Shown piece after piece: positions 34,020-41,752 of a DNA stretch of 64,000 nucleotides. Made by a program: the position numbers and the translations under genes. The DNA is from an uncultured Chthoniobacterales bacterium (GTDB lineage: Bacteria > Verrucomicrobiota > Verrucomicrobiia > Chthoniobacterales > CALDSX01), in assembly GCA_937924445.1 (NCBI GenBank), contig CALDSX010000009.1:25141-89140 (forward strand), in the 5' to 3' direction. Under the pieces are notes generated by a model. The model made no database searches and was not told the origin of the DNA. It saw only the letters and a list, made by a program, of their open reading frames with translations. Within the stretch, counting starts at the first letter, position 1, and each line of letters opens with the position of its first letter.

Positions 34020-34049
34020 AGAACAATGGACTTCTCTGAGCGGTCTGCT
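34020..34049 (+). promoter_or_regulatory. Candidate ECF-type (autoregulated) promoter
   Basis: aGAACAAT (34020-34027), 16 nt, then TCTGCT (34044-34049). This resembles the GGAACTT-N16-TCTGA pattern of RpoE-like ECF promoters. It ends only about 15 nt before the ECF sigma ATG, implying a very short leader. Confidence 0.3.
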
Positions 34050-34063
34050 ATAACCGGGCCCAG

Positions 34064-34648
34064 ATGGATTTCGAAAATCTTGATGATGCCGGGCTTGTGG
34101 CCCGAACTCAGGCAGGGGAGCCGAGGGCGTTTGATGAATTGATGCGACGGTTTGCTCCACGCATCTACGGGCTTGTCTATAACATGACCTCGAACCACGA
34201 GGACACAGGCGATTTACTGCAAGAAATTTTCGCAAAGGCCTATCGATCGATTGGCGGTTTTCGGGGGCAATCCAGTTTTTACACCTGGCTTTACACGATC
34301 GCGATAAATATAACTATTAATTTTCTAAAAAAACGCAACCGCCAGCCCAAGATCAGTCTGAACGATCTTGCTCCAAGTGCTTTCAAAGAGGATACATTAA
34401 CTGAGCTTTCGGCCGGCACCGACCCAGTTAAAGAGACGGATCTGGCGGAACTTCAAGTGAGGTTGAACGAAGCTATGCAGAAACTGTCTGAGGAGCATAG
34501 AACAGTGGTGACCCTCTTCGATATTCAAGGACTTCCACACAAAGAAATAGGAAAGATCCTTGGCATTTCCGAAGGAACGGTCCGTTCCAGATTACATTAT
34601 GCACATAAACAACTTCAGATTTATCTGCGAGAATTTCGCCCGAATTGA
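34064..34648 (+). CDS. ECF (group IV) sigma-70 family sigma factor
   Basis: 194 aa. Region 2 (FDELMRRFAPRIYGLVYNMT...DLLQEIFAKAYRSIGGFRGQSSFYTWLYTIAIN). Region 4 HTH (EEHRTVVTLFDIQGLPHKEIGKILGISEGTVRSRLHYA). Confidence 0.9.
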   Translation: MDFENLDDAGLVARTQAGEPRAFDELMRRFAPRIYGLVYNMTSNHEDTGDLLQEIFAKAYRSIGGFRGQSSFYTWLYTIAINITINFLKKRNRQPKISLNDLAPSAFKEDTLTELSAGTDPVKETDLAELQVRLNEAMQKLSEEHRTVVTLFDIQGLPHKEIGKILGISEGTVRSRLHYAHKQLQIYLREFRPN

Positions 34649-34721: not shown

Positions 34722-35333
34722 ATGACCGCAAAAAAATTAGCGCCAGACGAAGATCCAATTCTTAATTTCCTACGGCTGAAGCGACATGAAACCCCGACGG
34801 CGGATTATTTTGAAAGATTTATTGAAGAATTTCATCGCCGCCGAAGCCTCGAATTAATCCGTCGTCCCATCTGGAAACTTGCGGTTGACCGCATCTTATC
34901 GCGCCTGATCGATCCCGCCAGAGGATTTGCTCCAAGTCGGCGTGCCACAGTCGGAGCCGCCTTGGCGCTCGCGCTGGTAGCAATCGGGTTTGGCGCCGTC
35001 ACCATCAAACCTTGGCAAACGGGAGCCCGAGAGAGGCTGACAACGCTATTGCGCGGCGGAGAGGCGCAATCCGAACAATTAGCTTTTTCCGAACGCCCTG
35101 GCGTTGATGTTCTCAGTCAGATCAATAAACTCTCTCTCGATCCAAACCTGGATCAAATTTTCCTTGAGGAAAGCCTTGGTGAACGCAAGGTCAGAGCATC
35201 GACCGGAGCTGCATCTATCTCGACCTTGCGCGGGATTGGCAACGGCACCGCCCCGAGGCATGCTCTCTCCGCACCCAGGTATGTCATCGACGTTCGCCCT
35301 GTGAGTCATGACTCCCCGGTGCTAAGCTTTTAA
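34722..35333 (+). CDS. Putative single-pass anti-sigma factor (by position and topology only)
   Basis: 203 aa. About 85-aa cytoplasmic N-terminus, one TM (VGAALALALVAIGFGAVTI), and about 100-aa extracytoplasmic part. It lies immediately downstream of the ECF sigma gene. No HxxxCxxC (ZAS) motif is present. Confidence 0.45.
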   Translation: MTAKKLAPDEDPILNFLRLKRHETPTADYFERFIEEFHRRRSLELIRRPIWKLAVDRILSRLIDPARGFAPSRRATVGAALALALVAIGFGAVTIKPWQTGARERLTTLLRGGEAQSEQLAFSERPGVDVLSQINKLSLDPNLDQIFLEESLGERKVRASTGAASISTLRGIGNGTAPRHALSAPRYVIDVRPVSHDSPVLSF

Positions 35334-35343
35334 CCTCTCTCGC

Positions 35344-36363
35344 GTGCGCTTTTTCCCTTTTCCTCGGTATGTCACTTGCATAATTCTGCTGCTGGCCGGG
35401 CCGCAGAAATGGAGTTCAGCCATCGCGATAACACCCGACCGGCTGGAGCAGATTCGGCAAGAAGCCGCTCATGCAGTTGTGAAAATCGAAGGAACCGACC
35501 GGTTTGGCACCCTCATGGGAACCGGCTTTTTTATAGATGCCACTGGCACTATTGCAACCTCCTACAGCGTCGGGGGCGAAGCGGAAGATCTCTTCGTCAT
35601 CACCGGAGCACTCAAACTACCCGCCCGGCGTCTTGTCGCAGATAAACGTTCAGGGTTGGCTTTTTTAAAAATTGAAGCGATGACGCCCTCCCTCTCTGTT
35701 TACGACGACATGGTACCTGAGGGAACTGAAGTGGCCACTTTTGGCTATCCGATGGGGGGTGAATTGGAGGCGTCTTCAGGGCGTGTGGTGGCTTGTCAGG
35801 TAAGGAGTGGCGATCGTTTTTTTGCCACCACTCACCTTCGTGCCCTCGTCGCAGCACAGCCCGGAATGGGGGGGGCTCCAGTGCTCGATTCTGACGGGCG
35901 AGTTGTCGGTATTGTCATTAGTAAAACCGAGACCTCTCTGGGTTGTTTTGCTTTGCCCGGTAGAGCGATGCTTAAAATTCAGGCGGATCATCTCCGCTTT
36001 GGCGAGGTCCGGCACGCCTGGTTTGGTATTGAGCTGGCCGAGATAGATCTATCTGAAGAAAACCCTCTGGCTCGGGTGGCTGCGTTGACTAGGGGAGGAC
36101 CGAGTGAAAAATGTGGATTATTGCCCGGGGACTTAATCCGCAGAATCGGCTCAACGCCAATCAACTCAGCCTTCGATCTACTCGACGCCACGTTTTTCCT
36201 TGATGTGGGGAGCGCTGTGACTGTAAGAGTGGAGCGCGACGGCAAGCTTAGGGAGTTTGAAGTGGTGGCCGCGAACCATCCTGGATTGAATGTGGCTGAT
36301 TCCGGGCGGAGGTCATCCGGGGTCAACAACCGCGAGATCCGGCCGCTCTCATCGCCCCGGTGA
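35344..36363 (+). CDS. HtrA/DegS-like trypsin-fold + PDZ protein with apparently substituted catalytic triad (pseudoprotease)
   Basis: 339 aa. GTG start and signal/anchor segment. Trypsin-fold blocks align by eye to HtrA. TSYSV stands where TNNHV is expected (His to Ser). SGLAFLKI stands for TDLAVLKI (Asp to Gly). PGMGGAPV stands for PGNSGGPL (Ser to Gly). PDZ-like C-terminus (GLLPGDLIRRIGSTPINS...VTVRVERDGK). Confidence 0.7.
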   Translation: MRFFPFPRYVTCIILLLAGPQKWSSAIAITPDRLEQIRQEAAHAVVKIEGTDRFGTLMGTGFFIDATGTIATSYSVGGEAEDLFVITGALKLPARRLVADKRSGLAFLKIEAMTPSLSVYDDMVPEGTEVATFGYPMGGELEASSGRVVACQVRSGDRFFATTHLRALVAAQPGMGGAPVLDSDGRVVGIVISKTETSLGCFALPGRAMLKIQADHLRFGEVRHAWFGIELAEIDLSEENPLARVAALTRGGPSEKCGLLPGDLIRRIGSTPINSAFDLLDATFFLDVGSAVTVRVERDGKLREFEVVAANHPGLNVADSGRRSSGVNNREIRPLSSPR

Positions 36364-37142
36364 TTATGGTGTCTGTTGAGGAAGCGCACGCTTCGAGCCC
36401 CCAGTTCGAACCCCATTTCAATTTCTCGAACCCTTTTTTTCCGTTTCGAAGCTGTGTTGGCGGCGAAGAGCTTGAACGTCAGGCAGCCCAGTTTGTCGTC
36501 GCACCTGACGCGTTTATAACCTCCGAGCGCCTCATCGAATCCTTCGGAAGAGCTGCCCCCCTAGAGATAGACCTCGGATGCGGTGACGGTCGGTTTCTAT
36601 CTCAGATGGCACGCTGTTACCCCGACAAAAATTTCCTCGGAGTTGAGCGGCAGACGGAGCGTGTGAGAAAAACCGCAAGAAAGGCTGTACTTTTCGGGTG
36701 CCAAAATGTGCGAGTGGTCCAAACTGAGATTTTATCTTTTATCCGCTCCCTGTTACCATACGGTTCCGTTTTACGCATTCATGTTCTTTTCCCTGATCCC
36801 TGGCCGAAGAGGCGGCACAGCAAAAAGAGGCTTCTTTGTCCTGCCTTTTTTGAGGCCGCAGCAGCAGCACTTGCTCCCGGAGGTGAGGTGAGAGTTAAAA
36901 CAGATTGCGCGAGATATTTTCAAGAAGCTGTCTGCGCAGCGGGGCAGTGCGTTCTTTTGGAGCAGGTGGAATGGGTTGAGCTAAACCCTCCGATCCACAC
37001 CACCTTTGAAACCCGATTTCTTTCGGAAGGTCTTCCTCTCTTTGCTGCGCGATGGAAAAGGGCGGATGAGAGGATATTTAAACGCAATGGGGCTGATTTG
37101 GCCGAAAATCACTTGAACATGGGAAGAAAGTTACCAGAATAA
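36360..37142 (+). CDS. trmB: tRNA (guanine46-N7)-methyltransferase
   Basis: LEIDLGCGDGRFL SAM-binding motif, FLGVE, and IHVLFPDPWPKRRHSKKRL. The start overlaps the upstream stop by 4 nt. Confidence 0.92.
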   Translation: MIMVSVEEAHASSPQFEPHFNFSNPFFPFRSCVGGEELERQAAQFVVAPDAFITSERLIESFGRAAPLEIDLGCGDGRFLSQMARCYPDKNFLGVERQTERVRKTARKAVLFGCQNVRVVQTEILSFIRSLLPYGSVLRIHVLFPDPWPKRRHSKKRLLCPAFFEAAAAALAPGGEVRVKTDCARYFQEAVCAAGQCVLLEQVEWVELNPPIHTTFETRFLSEGLPLFAARWKRADERIFKRNGADLAENHLNMGRKLPE

Positions 37143-37372: not shown

Positions 37373-39514
37373 ATGCCCAAACTCCTGGATTTTCCTCCCT
37401 CAACGTATGACGACTGGCGAAAAGAAGCTGAGGACTCGCTGAAGGGAGCACCTTTTGACAAAAAGCTCGTTTCAACGACGGCCGAAGGTATTTTAACTCA
37501 ACCTATCTATAATAAGACCGACATTGTTGGCCTGCCTCATCTGGGAGGGGTTCCGGGCGTGCCGCCATTTCTGCGTGGTTGCACAGCCGCTGGGGCACTC
37601 ACCCGGCCTCCTTTGATCGCTCAAGAGATACCGGCGTTTCTCGCCAAAGACTTTAACTCTTCTCTGCGTTCCGACATCGAACGTGGGCAGACGGCGGTGC
37701 GTCTTGTGCCCGACAAAGCTACTCGTGAAGGGCTCGACCCTGATTTGGCGCTCGAGTCTGAAGTCGCCTCCGGCGGGGTCTCCCTCTCGTGCATTGAAGA
37801 CATCGCCCGGGCGCTGGAGGGTATTGATACTGAAAAAACCCCGGTTTTTTTCTCCGCTGGCTCGGCTGCACTGCCGCTTTTCGCTTTACTCATTGGTGCG
37901 CTCCAAAGGGTGGGTCGGGATCCTCGAACTCTGCGTGGCGGTATTGAGTTTGATCCCTCTGCAACGCTTGCCAGGCGTGGGGCTCTTCCCTTTGAGCTTG
38001 AGCGCGTCTACAGAGAGCTTGCTGCATTGAACCGATGGGCTGCCTCTGGAGCACCCGGTTTTCGCACGCTTGTTGCCGACTCAACACCGTGGCATGACGC
38101 CGGAGCTGATGCGGTTCAGGAGCTTGCCTTTGCTCTAGCATCCGGCGCCGATACCCTCCGACGTCTTGGCAAGTTTGGGTTTGAAACAGACCAGCTCGCT
38201 TCCAGAGTCTATTTTGTGATGGGCGTTGGGTCGGATTTTTTCATGGAAATCGCGAAGTTCCGAGCTGCGCGTCTTTTGTGGCATCGTATTCTTGTGGCTT
38301 TTGGTGGTTCGGGAGAGCCTGGATTGCCTCTGCACGCCAGGACGTCGCGCTGGAATAAAACATTCCTTGATTCCCACACCAATATGCTGCGTTCGACCAC
38401 AGAGGCATTCTCTGCTTATGTTGCCGGCGTAGAGGCGGTCACGGTCGGAGGGTTTGATGAGATCTTCCGAATGCCAGACGAGTTTTCGCGTCGCATCGCG
38501 CGAAACACGCAAATCATTCTGGGCGAGGAATGTTCCTTAAACCGTATCATTGATCCGGTAGGTGGCGCTTATTATCCCGAGTGGCTCACAGATCAGGTGG
38601 CGCGAAAAGCCTGGGCGTTGTTTCAGGAGATCGAGGCTCAGGGTGGCATGATGCAGGCTGTTCTTGCAGGCTACCCCCAAAGTCTTACCGCAAAATCTGC
38701 CGATGCCCGCCAGGCCGCACTTGCCCAGCGTCGGCGCAATATGGTTGGCGTGAACATTTACGCCAACGCGGCAGAAGGGTTTCTTCCTGATGATACCTCT
38801 CCCGAACGCGCAGCTCACATTTCCGAAATCCGCCGTAAAATTCGGCAAAAAAGCTCCGAACGCCGCATTTCCGCAGAGCATGGCGAGGCCATCGAAACGC
38901 TGGAGAAACTCTCCGGGCTTCTCGGCTCAATGGATGAGGATTTGATTGAAACGGCAGTTGATGCCGCTCTGCATGGGGCGACACTCGGTGAAATAACGAA
39001 AACCTTGCGTGCCTCCTCCTCTAGCAGCATATCGGCCATACAGATCAAGCCCCGCCGGGCGGCAGATCAATTCGAGCGGATTCGCCTTGCGACCGAGGCT
39101 CGCAGGGTGCGTACGGGTGTTCGGCCTAAAATTTTTCTTGCCTGCTTTGGCCCGTTGAGACAACACAAAGCTCGAGCCGATTTCTCTCGTTCATTTCTCG
39201 AAACCGGAGGGTTCGAAGTGGTGGCGGGTAAAGGTGTCCCTGCCCCCGAAGATGCCGTTCGGCTTGCGATTGAGGTCAATCCGGAGGCAGTCGTGATTTG
39301 TTCAACGGACGAAACCTACCCGGAAATCGTCCCGACGTTTGCTCGTGAAGTCAAACGCCGTAAACCCTCCATTGTCGTTCTGCTCGCCGGTGCACCCGGC
39401 GAAAATGAAACCGCATTTCGGGAGGCGGGAGTGGACGATTTTATCCACCTGCGCGCCAACTGCCGCGATGCTTTGGTTGCTCTTCAGGAACGCATTACTG
39501 GGAGCCAATTTTGA
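37373..39514 (+). CDS. mutA: Methylmalonyl-CoA mutase small (beta) subunit
   Basis: 713 aa. Mutase-fold N-terminus (YDDWRKEAEDSLKGAPFDKKL...TQPIY). Homologous blocks to the downstream alpha subunit (RIARNTQIILGEE, DPVGGAYY). The C-terminal Rossmann-like domain lacks the DxHxxG cobalamin motif, as expected for a beta subunit. Confidence 0.85.
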   Translation: MPKLLDFPPSTYDDWRKEAEDSLKGAPFDKKLVSTTAEGILTQPIYNKTDIVGLPHLGGVPGVPPFLRGCTAAGALTRPPLIAQEIPAFLAKDFNSSLRSDIERGQTAVRLVPDKATREGLDPDLALESEVASGGVSLSCIEDIARALEGIDTEKTPVFFSAGSAALPLFALLIGALQRVGRDPRTLRGGIEFDPSATLARRGALPFELERVYRELAALNRWAASGAPGFRTLVADSTPWHDAGADAVQELAFALASGADTLRRLGKFGFETDQLASRVYFVMGVGSDFFMEIAKFRAARLLWHRILVAFGGSGEPGLPLHARTSRWNKTFLDSHTNMLRSTTEAFSAYVAGVEAVTVGGFDEIFRMPDEFSRRIARNTQIILGEECSLNRIIDPVGGAYYPEWLTDQVARKAWALFQEIEAQGGMMQAVLAGYPQSLTAKSADARQAALAQRRRNMVGVNIYANAAEGFLPDDTSPERAAHISEIRRKIRQKSSERRISAEHGEAIETLEKLSGLLGSMDEDLIETAVDAALHGATLGEITKTLRASSSSSISAIQIKPRRAADQFERIRLATEARRVRTGVRPKIFLACFGPLRQHKARADFSRSFLETGGFEVVAGKGVPAPEDAVRLAIEVNPEAVVICSTDETYPEIVPTFAREVKRRKPSIVVLLAGAPGENETAFREAGVDDFIHLRANCRDALVALQERITGSQF

Positions 39515-39565
39515 TCCGCGACTCGAACTCACACATTCCAAGTCTCAATCTCCCACTTTTTTGAC

Positions 39566-41752
39566 ATGAAATTTCCTGATTTTACTACGATCCCATTCGA
39601 AGCCGCTCCTGCGACACTCAAACCGAGCTTTGAGGAATGGAGAGCCGCTCTTGAAAGGGAGACAGGCAAAACCCTCGAGGAATTGGCCTGGAAAACAATG
39701 GAACAAATTGAACTCGGGGCCCTCTTCACAGAACAGGATCTTGAGGGGCTCGAGCATCTCGACTACACCGCTGGTGTACCGCCTTATCTCCGTGGCCCCT
39801 ATGCCACGATGTATGTGACCCGACCCTGGACGGTTCGTCAATACGCGGGATTTTCTACAGCCACCGAATCAAACGCCTTTTATCGCCGTAATCTTGCTGC
39901 CGGCCAGATGGGGCTCTCTGTTGCGTTCGATCTTGCAACACACCGTGGCTATGACTCCGACCATCCGCGAGTGATGGGTGACGTGGGAAAGGCCGGTGTG
40001 GCTGTGGATTCTGTTGAGGACATGAAAATTCTTTTCGACGGCATTCCGCTCGACAAAATGTCGGTCTCGATGACGATGAACGGCGCTGTCATCCCCGTTC
40101 TGGCATTTTACATTGTGGCTGCCGAGGAACAGGGTGTTAGGCACGAGCAACTGACAGGCACCATCCAGAACGATATCCTCAAGGAATACATGGTGCGGAA
40201 TACCTATATCTATCCGCCTGAGCCTTCGATGCGGATCATCGCCGATATTTTCCGCTTCACATCCAAGAATATGCCGAAGTTTAATAGCATCTCGATTTCC
40301 GGCTACCACATGCAGGAAGCGGGAGCCACTGCGGATCTTGAAATGGCTTACACACTTGCCGACGGGCTGGAATATGTGCGCACCGGCATTCAAGCCGGTA
40401 TTGATATTGACGCATTCGCTCCTCGGCTTTCGTTTTTTTGGGCGCAAGGCAAGAATTTCTTCATGGAAGTGGCCAAGATGCGCGCCGCCCGCGTGCTCTG
40501 GGCCAAGATCATCAAAGGGTTTAATCCTCAGAACCCAAAGAGCATGGCTTTGCGCACCCATTCGCAAACCAGCGGATGGTCACTCACTGAACAGGATCCG
40601 TTTAACAACGTCGTTCGCACTGCCGTCGAGGCAATGGCCGCAGCTCTCGGCCACACCCAATCGCTGCACACGAATTCCCTCGATGAAGCAATAGCGTTGC
40701 CAACAGATTTCTCGGCCCGGATTGCCCGCAACACTCAGCTATATCTTCAAGACGAAACCGGCATCTGTCGGGTGGTCGATCCGTGGGGCGGCTCTTACTA
40801 TGTTGAAGCCCTTACCGGCGCTCTTATCCAGCGGGCCTGGTCGCATATTGAAGAGGTTGAAAAACTTGGTGGCATGGCCAAAGCAATTGATTCCGGCCTT
40901 CCGAAGCTTCGGATCGAGGAGGCTGCTGCCCGGCGCCAGGCTCTCATTGATTCCGGCCGAGAGGTTATTGTAGGGGTCAACAAATACCGACTCTCCAAAG
41001 AGGAGCCCCTTGAAATCCTCGACGTGGACAACACGGCTGTCCGTAATGCGCAGATTGCCGCGATTAAAAAAATTAAAGCCACCCGCGACAACGCCCGAGT
41101 CACCTCGGCCCTCGCCGCGCTTCAAAATGCTGCCGCAACCAAGACCGGAAATTTGTTGGAACTCGCTCTTGAATGCGCCCGTGCTCGCGCGACATTGGGC
41201 GAGATTTCCGACGCAATGGAATCAGTGTTCGGACGTCACAAAGCGGTTATCCGCTCTGTTTCGGGGGTCTATGGCAAGGAGTTTGGTGACTCCGCACAGA
41301 TAGCCGAGGCCCGGCGGCTGACGGATGATTTCGCTCTGCGCGAAGGTCGTCGACCTCGCATCCTTATCGCCAAGATTGGCCAGGATGGGCATGACCGCGG
41401 CGCAAAAGTCGTTGCCACAGCCTATGCCGATCTCGGTTTCGATGTGGATATCGGGCCCCTCTTTCAAACACCAGCAGAGACCGCCCGCATGGCGGCTGAG
41501 AATGACGTGCATGTCGTCGGCATGTCAAGCCTTGCTGCCGGCCATAAAACCCTTCTCCCGCAACTTGTCGCGGAGCTTAAAAAACTCGGGCGCGAGGACA
41601 TCATTGTCATCGTCGGCGGTGTGATCCCCGCGCAAGACTACGATTTTCTGCTTGCCCATGGCGCAGCCGCCATTTTCGGGCCAGGCACGGTTATCCCCGA
41701 GGCGGCCATCAAAATAGTTAACGAACTGAACAAAAGGCTTGCCTCAGCCTGA
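39566..41752 (+). CDS. mutB: Methylmalonyl-CoA mutase large (alpha) subunit, adenosylcobalamin-binding
   Basis: 728 aa. [43 protein letters not shown], and the B12-binding [13 protein letters not shown] (DxHxxG) with GMSSLAAGH. Confidence 0.97.

Follow-up and report, generated by a model that had tools for sequence, protein, structure and literature searches.

A triad-less HtrA-family protein encoded with an ECF sigma factor and a presumed anti-sigma factor in Verrucomicrobiota

Introduction

In the sigma-E paradigm, the textbook case of signalling by anti-sigma proteolysis, an HtrA protease makes the first cut in the anti-sigma factor. What, then, does an HtrA relative do in such a pathway when the residues that would make the cut are missing? 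The question is raised by a 64,000-nucleotide stretch of DNA, here called the window, from an uncultured Chthoniobacterales bacterium (CALDSX01; assembly GCA_937924445.1, contig CALDSX010000009.1, positions 25,141 to 89,140 of the forward strand). An open reading frame at window positions 35344-36363 (+ strand), starting with GTG and encoding 339 residues, lies directly after the genes for a sigma factor of the extracytoplasmic function (ECF) group and a presumed anti-sigma factor; its product is called pseudo-HtrA below. Verrucomicrobiota, among them the abundant soil Chthoniobacterales and Udaeobacter and the marine Opitutales, keep the HtrA scaffold in this sigma pathway without its catalysis, and pair it with a presumed anti-sigma that belongs to no described family and ends in a tail resembling a substrate of HtrA. 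These features suggest an undescribed, non-proteolytic control of an envelope-stress switch. Full-text literature searches returned nothing on an ECF-linked inactive HtrA or on this anti-sigma family, and the text of the ECF classification paper PMC7826278 mentions neither Verrucomicrobia nor trypsin nor PDZ.

Domain architecture and active site of pseudo-HtrA

The initial annotation read the 339-residue protein as an HtrA trypsin fold followed by one PDZ domain, an assignment with which Pfam, AlphaFold2 and Foldseek agree. Trypsin_2 matches residues 59-190 (E 7e-17), within a catalytically degenerate trypsin-like (S1C) domain of about residues 44-215 (35473..35988, +). PDZ_2 matches residues 235-307 (E 3e-11), and PDZ_6 is matched as well, within a PDZ domain of residues 223-312 (36010..36279, +) that begins with a conserved carboxylate-binding loop, R223-H-A-W-F-G228-I. 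Pfam finds no further domain in the chain. The AlphaFold2 model, built from 54 homologues, has a predicted local distance difference test (pLDDT) value of 87.5 and a predicted template modelling score (pTM) of 0.82, and its beta-barrel strands span residues 45 to 205 with pLDDT mostly above 90. The two-barrel chymotrypsin-like domain followed by at least one PDZ domain that characterizes the HtrA family is thus present. By sequence, the nearest solved structure is a DegP-like protease (22kg, E 8e-25, phmmer), and the closest solved relatives together (DegP-like, MucD (8k2y), DegQ and Mycobacterium tuberculosis HtrA) span E 8e-25 to 3e-15. A Foldseek search with the model returned DegP, DegQ, MucD, M. 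tuberculosis HtrA, AlgW (entries beginning 7co) and DegS, with E down to 1.6e-24 and template modelling (TM) scores up to 0.84; DegP 8f0a is matched at E 1.6e-24 and a TM score of 0.83. Named subfamilies of active enzymes are not reached: the NCBIfam models score 93.7 against a cut-off of 416 for the Do family (TIGR02037), 37.2 against 423 for DegS (TIGR02038), 31 against 756 for DegQ and 26 against 720 for DegP.

The His-Asp-Ser triad that HtrA proteases carry in the motifs TNxHV, DxAxL and GNSGGP is missing from the window protein. Ser75 occupies the position of the catalytic His (TSYS75V; codon 35566..35568, +), Gly104 that of the Asp (RSG104LA; 35653..35655, +) and Gly176 that of the Ser, within PGMG176GAP in place of PGNSGGP (35869..35871, +). 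The same three substitutions, proposed by eye in the initial annotation, are given by three independent alignments that agree: a phmmer alignment to four solved HtrAs, a MAFFT alignment that includes canonical DegQ/DegP homologues, and a profile alignment with hmmalign, which returns the same non-catalytic residues. Structural comparison with DegS and DegP, also proposed there, bears out the fold, which superposes; the triad residues themselves are placed by the sequence and profile alignments, the Foldseek match having given no residue-level superposition. Lacking the triad, pseudo-HtrA falls outside the active S1C proteases.

The N-terminus, read by eye, has a basic n-region, an 11-residue hydrophobic core and an A-x-A site, consistent with a probable Sec signal peptide at residues 1-27 (MRFFPFPRYVTCIILLLAGPQKWSSAIA/IT, the stroke marking the likely cleavage point; 35344..35424, +). 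A comparable hydrophobic segment is found at the N-terminus of 50 of 52 family members. The segment probably resembles a cleavable signal peptide more than a membrane anchor, and would put the protein in the periplasm together with the tail of the presumed anti-sigma. Pseudo-HtrA is accordingly best read as an HtrA-family protein that is probably secreted and has no catalytic function.

Loss of the triad across the family

Substitutions in one gene could reflect no more than local sequence loss; they are instead shared by a large family. A protein search retrieved relatives P0001-P0054 at E 1e-220 to 1e-44 and ordinary DegQ/DegP only from E 1e-21 and weaker, so that the pseudo-HtrAs form a tight group set off by a large E-value gap. 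The nearest homologue is 76% identical to the window protein, and the named relatives belong to Verrucomicrobiia and Chthoniobacterales. When one genome was scanned for each species, at least 473 relatives came to light; the 80 highest-ranking, used below as genome loci, are all from Verrucomicrobiota, mostly Chthoniobacterales, "Spartobacteria", Udaeobacter and Chthoniobacter. Among 134 Chthoniobacterales relatives, the catalytic His column holds Ser (76), Thr (37), Ala (14), Asp (4), Gly (2) and Glu (1) and never His, the Asp column is Gly in every one, and the Ser column holds Ala (72), Gly (58) and Ser (4). None of 68 metagenome relatives, the pseudo-HtrAs encoded downstream of the presumed anti-sigma, has His or Asp at the catalytic position. 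Survey of orthologues thus extends the triad loss from the window gene to a large family with no catalytic His and no catalytic Asp.

Wider searches gave the same picture. An exhaustive profile search over 1.84 billion representatives was followed by examination of the top 150 clusters, most of which are triad-less, with the Asp replaced by Gly in one main type and by Asn in the other; the proteins among them with a full His/Asp/Ser set are all long, at 486 residues or more. A second search, seeded with 79 diverse members, reached further relatives; where a source is named, it is Opitutales, Opitutaceae, Puniceicoccaceae or Coraliomargarita sinensis, a cultured species. In the 108 new proteins examined, the triad positions read Ser/Asn/Gly in 106 and Ser/Asn/Pro in two. 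DegS-type site-1 proteases combine an active triad with a membrane anchor. With the triad lost across the family, the window protein cannot be an enzyme of this type, in line with the initial suggestion that it may have a role other than that of site-1 protease. Public databases nevertheless name its relatives "S1C family serine protease" (Prokaryotic Genome Annotation Pipeline, PGAP) and "serine protease Do" (Joint Genome Institute, JGI), a systematic annotation error; "PDZ domain-containing protein" is also used.

A protease working with unconventional catalytic residues would reconcile the fold with these columns, and some residues invite the idea: Ser stands at the His position in many members and at the nucleophile position in four, and His164 is near-invariant in the close family. 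The columns themselves speak strongly against it. The His position varies freely among Ser, Thr, Ala, Asp, Gly and Glu, and the Ser position among Gly, Ala, Ile, Val, Gln, Leu and Pro, while a Gly at the Asp position is unable to orient a base. In the broad alignment of 79 members, the invariant or near-invariant residues, the start Met aside, are Gly, Pro, Phe, Asp and Arg only, and a search of that alignment for an alternative catalytic set found no conserved Ser, His, Lys or Cys. Such a protease is accordingly very improbable.

What the family has kept is the surroundings of the active site and the peptide-binding loop. Residues G174, G177 and P179 of the oxyanion-hole loop are invariant or nearly so, and G228 of the PDZ loop is invariant in all 79 members of the broad alignment. 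For that loop, four members of the Chthoniobacterales type show R[HP][AG]W[FILM]G[IVM], two divergent ones show RYGWMGM and RHGWMGV, and two of the Opitutales type show IHSW[LM]GF, against RGWLGV in canonical HtrAs; as a matter of sequence conservation, the window PDZ domain has the x-Φ-G-Φ carboxylate-binding loop (Φ, hydrophobic residue). With the oxyanion-loop backbone and the PDZ loop retained and no nucleophile or base conserved, pseudo-HtrA has kept the peptide-binding architecture and lost the chemistry.

Two further variants were encountered. The four members with a Ser at the nucleophile position (loci L012, L032, L059 and L078) carry it in the context QRGESGAP, still without His and Asp, as a case of either retention or reversion. 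A separate single-PDZ HtrA homologue, P0090 (383 residues, on a 5.6-Mb contig), carries Lys, Glu and Gly in place of the triad (TVDKAV, SEVAVI, PGYGGAP); it lies outside the family studied here, and triad-less HtrAs may therefore have arisen more than once.

A conserved three-gene module

The gene that opens the module (34064..34648, +) encodes a 194-residue, RpoE-like ECF (group 4) sigma factor that matches Sigma70_r2 and Sigma70_r4_2 in Pfam. Its score of 119.5 bits with TIGR02937, above the cut-off of 42.9, places it in the ECF superfamily; with the RpoE equivalog model TIGR02939 it reaches 130 bits, short of the cut-off of 236. In the window, the sigma gene is followed after 73 nt by the gene for a 203-residue membrane protein and, after a further 10 nt, by pseudo-HtrA. 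The placement directly behind an ECF sigma and a putative anti-sigma gene, noticed in the initial annotation, is a conserved one. A tblastn search with the window genes at the 80 genome loci recovered the trio in the same order at all 70 loci with enough upstream DNA, with identities to the window proteins of 61-68% for the sigma, 25-55% for the middle protein and 37-44% for pseudo-HtrA. The outer neighbours of the window, GatA, fumarase, TrmB and methylmalonyl-CoA mutase, were not found beside the trio at the 80 loci by the same search. The trio also occurs at the divergent Ser/Asn/Gly-type loci L081-L083, in the closer relatives L088 and L089, in the cultured Opitutales species Coraliomargarita sinensis (L085) and in an Opitutaceae assembly (L086); at L084, a short contig, only the end of the gene preceding the small protein is present. 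The module is thus distributed across Verrucomicrobiota.

The pairing was also approached from the other side, by an independent search of metagenome contigs that used only the N-terminal motif of the presumed anti-sigma (pattern LR[LM]KR[HYF]E[QTK]P) and gave 551 relatives, of which 80 were kept. From this starting point, the sigma gene lies upstream in all 63 loci having at least 700 nt of upstream sequence, and pseudo-HtrA lies downstream in 60 of 61 loci having at least 700 nt on that side. As the pairing is near-absolute from either search direction, sigma, presumed anti-sigma and pseudo-HtrA constitute an obligate module. At the sole exception, L119, the anti-sigma gene is truncated and ends in ...GSVGC, so that it alone among the anti-sigma relatives is without the tail, and pseudo-HtrA is missing despite room downstream; a frameshift or assembly error is probable, and a natural joint loss of tail and pseudo-HtrA could also account for it. 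A 626-residue gene product, P0130, was considered as a natural fusion of anti-sigma and pseudo-HtrA and rejected as an Arg-rich, low-complexity chimeric gene call, probably produced by frameshifts in high-GC DNA.

These surveys bear directly on whether the window gene is simply an HtrA gene of the normal kind that is decaying in this one strain. The missing triad is all that speaks for decay. The open reading frame is intact, the model is confident, and hundreds of orthologues at 25-76% identity show the same substitutions with the same synteny. The orthologue survey rules out strain-specific decay of the window gene, a reading to which we give next to no credence. With triad loss conserved and gene order essentially invariant, pseudo-HtrA is under selection as part of the sigma module. 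Gene decay and unconventional catalysis are both essentially excluded.

The presumed anti-sigma and its tail

The middle gene (34722..35333, +) encodes a 203-residue, single-pass membrane protein of an undescribed family. It consists of a conserved, helical cytoplasmic N-terminus, one transmembrane helix, a variable periplasmic stretch and a strongly conserved C-terminus. The N-terminal motif (residues 15-47; 34764..34862, +), with the consensus LLRLKRxEQPPPxYFxxFLxEFHRRQRxELLR, is the most conserved part besides the C-terminus and is kept in the Opitutales-type partners. The transmembrane helix lies at residues 77-95 (VGAALALALVAIGFGAVTI; 34950..35006, +) by hydropathy, with a Kyte-Doolittle maximum over 19 residues of 2.35, and at 72-94 in the AlphaFold2 model. 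Its pLDDT of 50 marks that model as low in confidence; it has helices at the N-terminus, the transmembrane helix and a periplasmic part that is largely unstructured. A word-indexed search had yielded four homologues for it, and it was left out of the fold search as a poor model. A gene co-oriented beside an ECF sigma gene, a short helical cytoplasmic domain, one transmembrane helix and an extracytoplasmic C-terminal part together give the arrangement expected of an anti-sigma factor, and the label presumed anti-sigma is taken from this position and topology. Homology searches add little to it: neither the window protein nor 18 homologues match Pfam, a profile of the family finds nothing in the PDB at E up to 10, and the sole NCBIfam match is NF052375, "anti-sigma factor", at E 0.02 and 15 bits against a cut-off of 100.

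The conserved C-terminus is a tail of 18 residues, P-R-Y-V-L-D-x-x-P-V-S-Y-E-x-x-Φ-x-F-COOH (consensus PRYVLDxxPVSYExxΦxF), which in the window reads PRYVIDVRPVSHDSPVLSF. The tail region as annotated there covers residues 185-203 (APRYVIDVRPVSHDSPVLSF-COOH; 35274..35330, +), a 19-mer that includes PRYVID, and the chain ends in the C-terminal peptide RPVSHDSPVLSF-COOH. In 154 sequences, the last residue is Phe in 150, Tyr in three and another residue in one, and 128 have Phe or Leu at position -2. Between the aliphatic residue of RYV and the C-terminus, the spacing is exactly 14 residues in 144 of 149 sequences. Complete anti-sigmas retrieved through the N-terminal motif end in Phe in 74 of 75 cases. 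Distant partners have different tails that still end in an aromatic residue (...YDPTGDF, ...YDSRLAF and, in the Opitutales type, ...VASLVY).

HtrA PDZ domains bind free hydrophobic or aromatic C-termini, and DegS is switched on by the Y-x-F-COOH ends of unassembled outer-membrane proteins. The tail of the presumed anti-sigma resembles, in sequence, the C-terminal peptides bound by such domains. The initial annotation had offered three non-catalytic roles for pseudo-HtrA, namely sensor, decoy and anti-sigma protector; the tail and the PDZ loop do not decide which of these applies.

A proposed mechanism and its alternatives

The tail looks like an ideal HtrA substrate, with a C-terminal and an aliphatic element suitably spaced, and both the PDZ loop and the backbone of the cleft are retained in pseudo-HtrA; a contact between the two proteins is proposed on these grounds. 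Set on the observed fold, triad loss, synteny and conservation of tail and PDZ loop, a mechanism may be outlined in which export, tail binding, the direction of regulation and the signal would be as follows. The presumed anti-sigma would be a single-pass inner-membrane protein whose periplasmic part is variable and, except for the tail, probably unstructured. Its terminal Φ-x-Phe-COOH would dock in the PDZ domain of pseudo-HtrA, as outer-membrane protein C-termini do on DegS and DegP, and the cleft of the dead active site would take up the aliphatic RYV-L element, which stands 14 residues upstream. There the tail would be held and not cut, since Ser, Gly and Gly replace His, Asp and Ser. Acting as a substrate trap or cap, pseudo-HtrA would shield the disordered periplasmic part of the anti-sigma from periplasmic proteases. 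RseB shields RseA from DegS in a comparable fashion, and a single inactive protein would here join that protective role with the signal reading done by the DegS PDZ domain. That the dead HtrA holds the tail as a trapped substrate, shields the anti-sigma from degradation and so keeps the sigma sequestered is the role we favour, with a confidence about evenly divided between its being right and wrong.

The version of this proposal to which we commit includes a signal. Unassembled outer-membrane proteins, whose free C-termini are also Φ-x-Phe-COOH, would rival the tail for the PDZ domain and so displace it; the anti-sigma would next be degraded by an active protease followed by an intramembrane one, leaving the sigma free. 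In its fullest form, the module would be an envelope-stress sensor working by competitive displacement, in which the anti-sigma carries a built-in mimic of an outer-membrane protein C-terminus together with a cleavage-site-like element at the 14-residue spacing, both clamped by the dead HtrA as a substrate that it cannot cleave, and which would replace RseB and the sensing half of DegS throughout the phylum. We put this fullest form forward tentatively and regard it as doubtful. Were the proposed contact real, it would show a protease evolving into a receptor for its former substrate and would offer a simple, testable model of envelope-stress sensing in a poorly studied phylum, with the cultured carrier Coraliomargarita sinensis allowing experiments.

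Several points weigh against this reading of the locus. The small membrane protein has no homology to known anti-sigma domains in Pfam, NCBIfam or the PDB. Opitutales-type partners have a different tail (...SLVY) that lacks the RYVLD element, and the two-point contact may therefore hold only in the Chthoniobacterales-type branch. The tail is near-invariant, leaving no covariation with the PDZ domain to measure. Four relatives have a Ser at the nucleophile position, though His and Asp are missing from them. The binding of a C-terminus to PDZ1 of DegP with cutting at an aliphatic residue some 13-15 positions upstream, to which the spacing of the tail can be likened, serves here as a lead only. 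Finally, the direction of regulation is a guess, and the same anatomy would suit an adaptor handing the tail over to a protease that is active. On the spacing, PMC3169616 mentions a "molecular ruler" model of DegP.

An adaptor or activator of this kind would be a positive regulator of sigma release, the dead HtrA presenting the tail to an active protease. It might do this by forming mixed oligomers with an HtrA paralogue that is catalytic, or else a C-terminal processing protease might be recruited. Obligate synteny, a conserved tail and a conserved PDZ loop are as much its anatomy as that of a protector. We know of no description of heteromeric bacterial HtrA trimers of the adaptor type, which counts against it, and no active HtrA gene is linked to the module: only the three-gene core is conserved at the 80 genome loci (by tblastn of the window neighbours) and at L081-L090 (by called genes). 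In plant DEG7, degenerate HtrA protease domains do serve as oligomerization modules (PMC3194040). On balance, we consider an adaptor role unlikely.

Pseudo-HtrA might, finally, make no specific contact with the anti-sigma at all. As a co-transcribed chaperone or holdase, it would be a member of the regulon that, like DegP S210A, takes hold of misfolded proteins of the envelope but leaves them uncut, and would dampen the signal indirectly, in parallel to MucD. HtrA genes stand in sigma operons elsewhere (mucD in Pseudomonas, htrA beside sigE-rseA in Mycobacterium), the nearest solved structures include MucD and M. tuberculosis HtrA, and the peptide-binding features are retained. Three observations would be left unexplained: the invariant, precisely spaced 18-residue tail ending in Phe, the pairing in 60 of 61 loci found from the anti-sigma side, and the loss of catalysis in every member, MucD and DegP being active. 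A holdase role is on this evidence rather improbable, and the shielding of a trapped tail remains the role that we prefer.

Comparison with known sigma pathways and inactive HtrA proteins

The sigma-E system of Escherichia coli (RpoE, RseA, RseB, DegS and RseP) resembles the module in its RpoE-like ECF sigma, in a single-pass anti-sigma with a periplasmic C-terminal part and in an HtrA-family PDZ protein dedicated to the pathway. A gene for a periplasmic protein follows the anti-sigma gene in an rseB-like position, and the signal vocabulary is likely common to both, C-terminal aromatic peptides being what the DegS PDZ domain reads. The two also differ. DegS is active, membrane-anchored and encoded away from rpoE, whereas the HtrA of the module is triad-less, looks secreted and is encoded in the operon; the module shows no homology to RseB or RseA, and the aromatic C-terminus is on the anti-sigma itself. 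Pseudo-HtrA has the position of an RseB/MucB-type protein, being an exported-looking protein (as judged from its N-terminus) encoded 10 nt behind the anti-sigma gene. MucB_RseB families do not match it in Pfam or NCBIfam at E up to 1, and its fold is that of HtrA; lacking homology, it is not an RseB/MucB protein. By analogy, the module may work most like a merger of RseB with the PDZ half of DegS.

In Pseudomonas aeruginosa, the algU-mucA-mucB-mucC-mucD operon likewise places an HtrA-family gene, mucD, with a sigma and anti-sigma, MucD acting as a negative regulator, and MucD (8k2y) and AlgW (entries beginning 7co) are among the best structural matches of pseudo-HtrA. Both are active, however, MucD has two PDZ domains, and the algU operon also carries mucB and mucC. 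MucA is not known to have a comparable conserved Φ-x-F tail. The M. tuberculosis genes sigE-rseA-htrA (Rv1221-Rv1223) have the gene order of the module, with an ECF sigma, an anti-sigma and a single-PDZ HtrA, and structures of this HtrA match pseudo-HtrA by sequence at E about 3e-15. Mycobacterial HtrA differs in its intact triad and transmembrane anchor, RseA is cytoplasmic, and the model NF050055 gives pseudo-HtrA only 55 bits against a cut-off of 800.

Loss of catalysis in an HtrA protein has precedents of other kinds. MamO, the only well-studied bacterial pseudo-HtrA (PMC4794232), is likewise an HtrA-family protein that has lost catalysis and been put to a non-proteolytic use. In MamO, that use is metal binding, by a His pair, in a protein with a fused TauE-like transporter domain encoded in a magnetosome island, with no link to a sigma factor; the degenerate triad is all that the two have in common. 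The MamO model NF040961 gives pseudo-HtrA 25 bits against a cut-off of 800. Since context, domains and score all differ, pseudo-HtrA is not of the MamO type. Plant DEG7 (PMC3194040) has an HtrA protease domain without catalytic residues that is kept for protein-protein contacts, as would be the case here; a single chain of DEG7 joins the dead domain to an active one, and the protein is eukaryotic and has no role in sigma signalling.

Flanking genes and the region upstream of the sigma gene

Downstream of the module lies trmB, encoding tRNA m7G46 methyltransferase (36360-37142, +), which scores 127 bits with TIGR00091, above the cut-off. Its start overlaps the stop of pseudo-HtrA by 4 nt, an arrangement that probably entails co-translation with the module and that is also found in L088, a relative at 57% identity. 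A PrmA-like methyltransferase takes the place of trmB at L081-L083, and none of the 80 Chthoniobacterales loci has trmB there. After trmB come the genes for methylmalonyl-CoA mutase, one for the small subunit and one for the large (37373-41752, +). Rfam, at the gathering score, has no match in the whole 64-kb window, and hence neither a cobalamin riboswitch nor any other known RNA was detected.

A consensus scan stayed at background level. No ECF promoter or regulon could be defined, and no ECF-type -35/-10 pair was recognized upstream of the window sigma gene. A three-way alignment with the closer relatives shows only a TGCTATAAC-like box near the sigma start codon. In the window, within the region upstream of the sigma start (34040-34063), the TGCTATAAC box, which resembles an extended -10 element, stops 12 nt short of the sigma ATG; at the same place, L089 shows TAGTATAAC; the box may point to a very short leader and to a housekeeping-type rather than an ECF promoter.

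The words GATTTG and CCTGCT are over-represented upstream of the sigma gene and were rejected as promoter candidates, since both lie inside coding sequence. One belongs to the 3' end of an upstream gene and the other to an N-terminal extension of the sigma in Udaeobacter-like genomes. Some 40 Udaeobacter-like loci besides L047, L077, L072 and L044 share with these a conserved stretch ahead of the sigma start and in frame with it, ATG ... GCN YTN CCN ... CGN CGN ... TCC GAT TTG TTR TCG TCS GG; it lies 45-57 nt upstream of the position equivalent to the start in the window. This stretch suggests that the Udaeobacter-like sigmas carry an N-terminal extension of about 35 residues that is absent from the window sigma.

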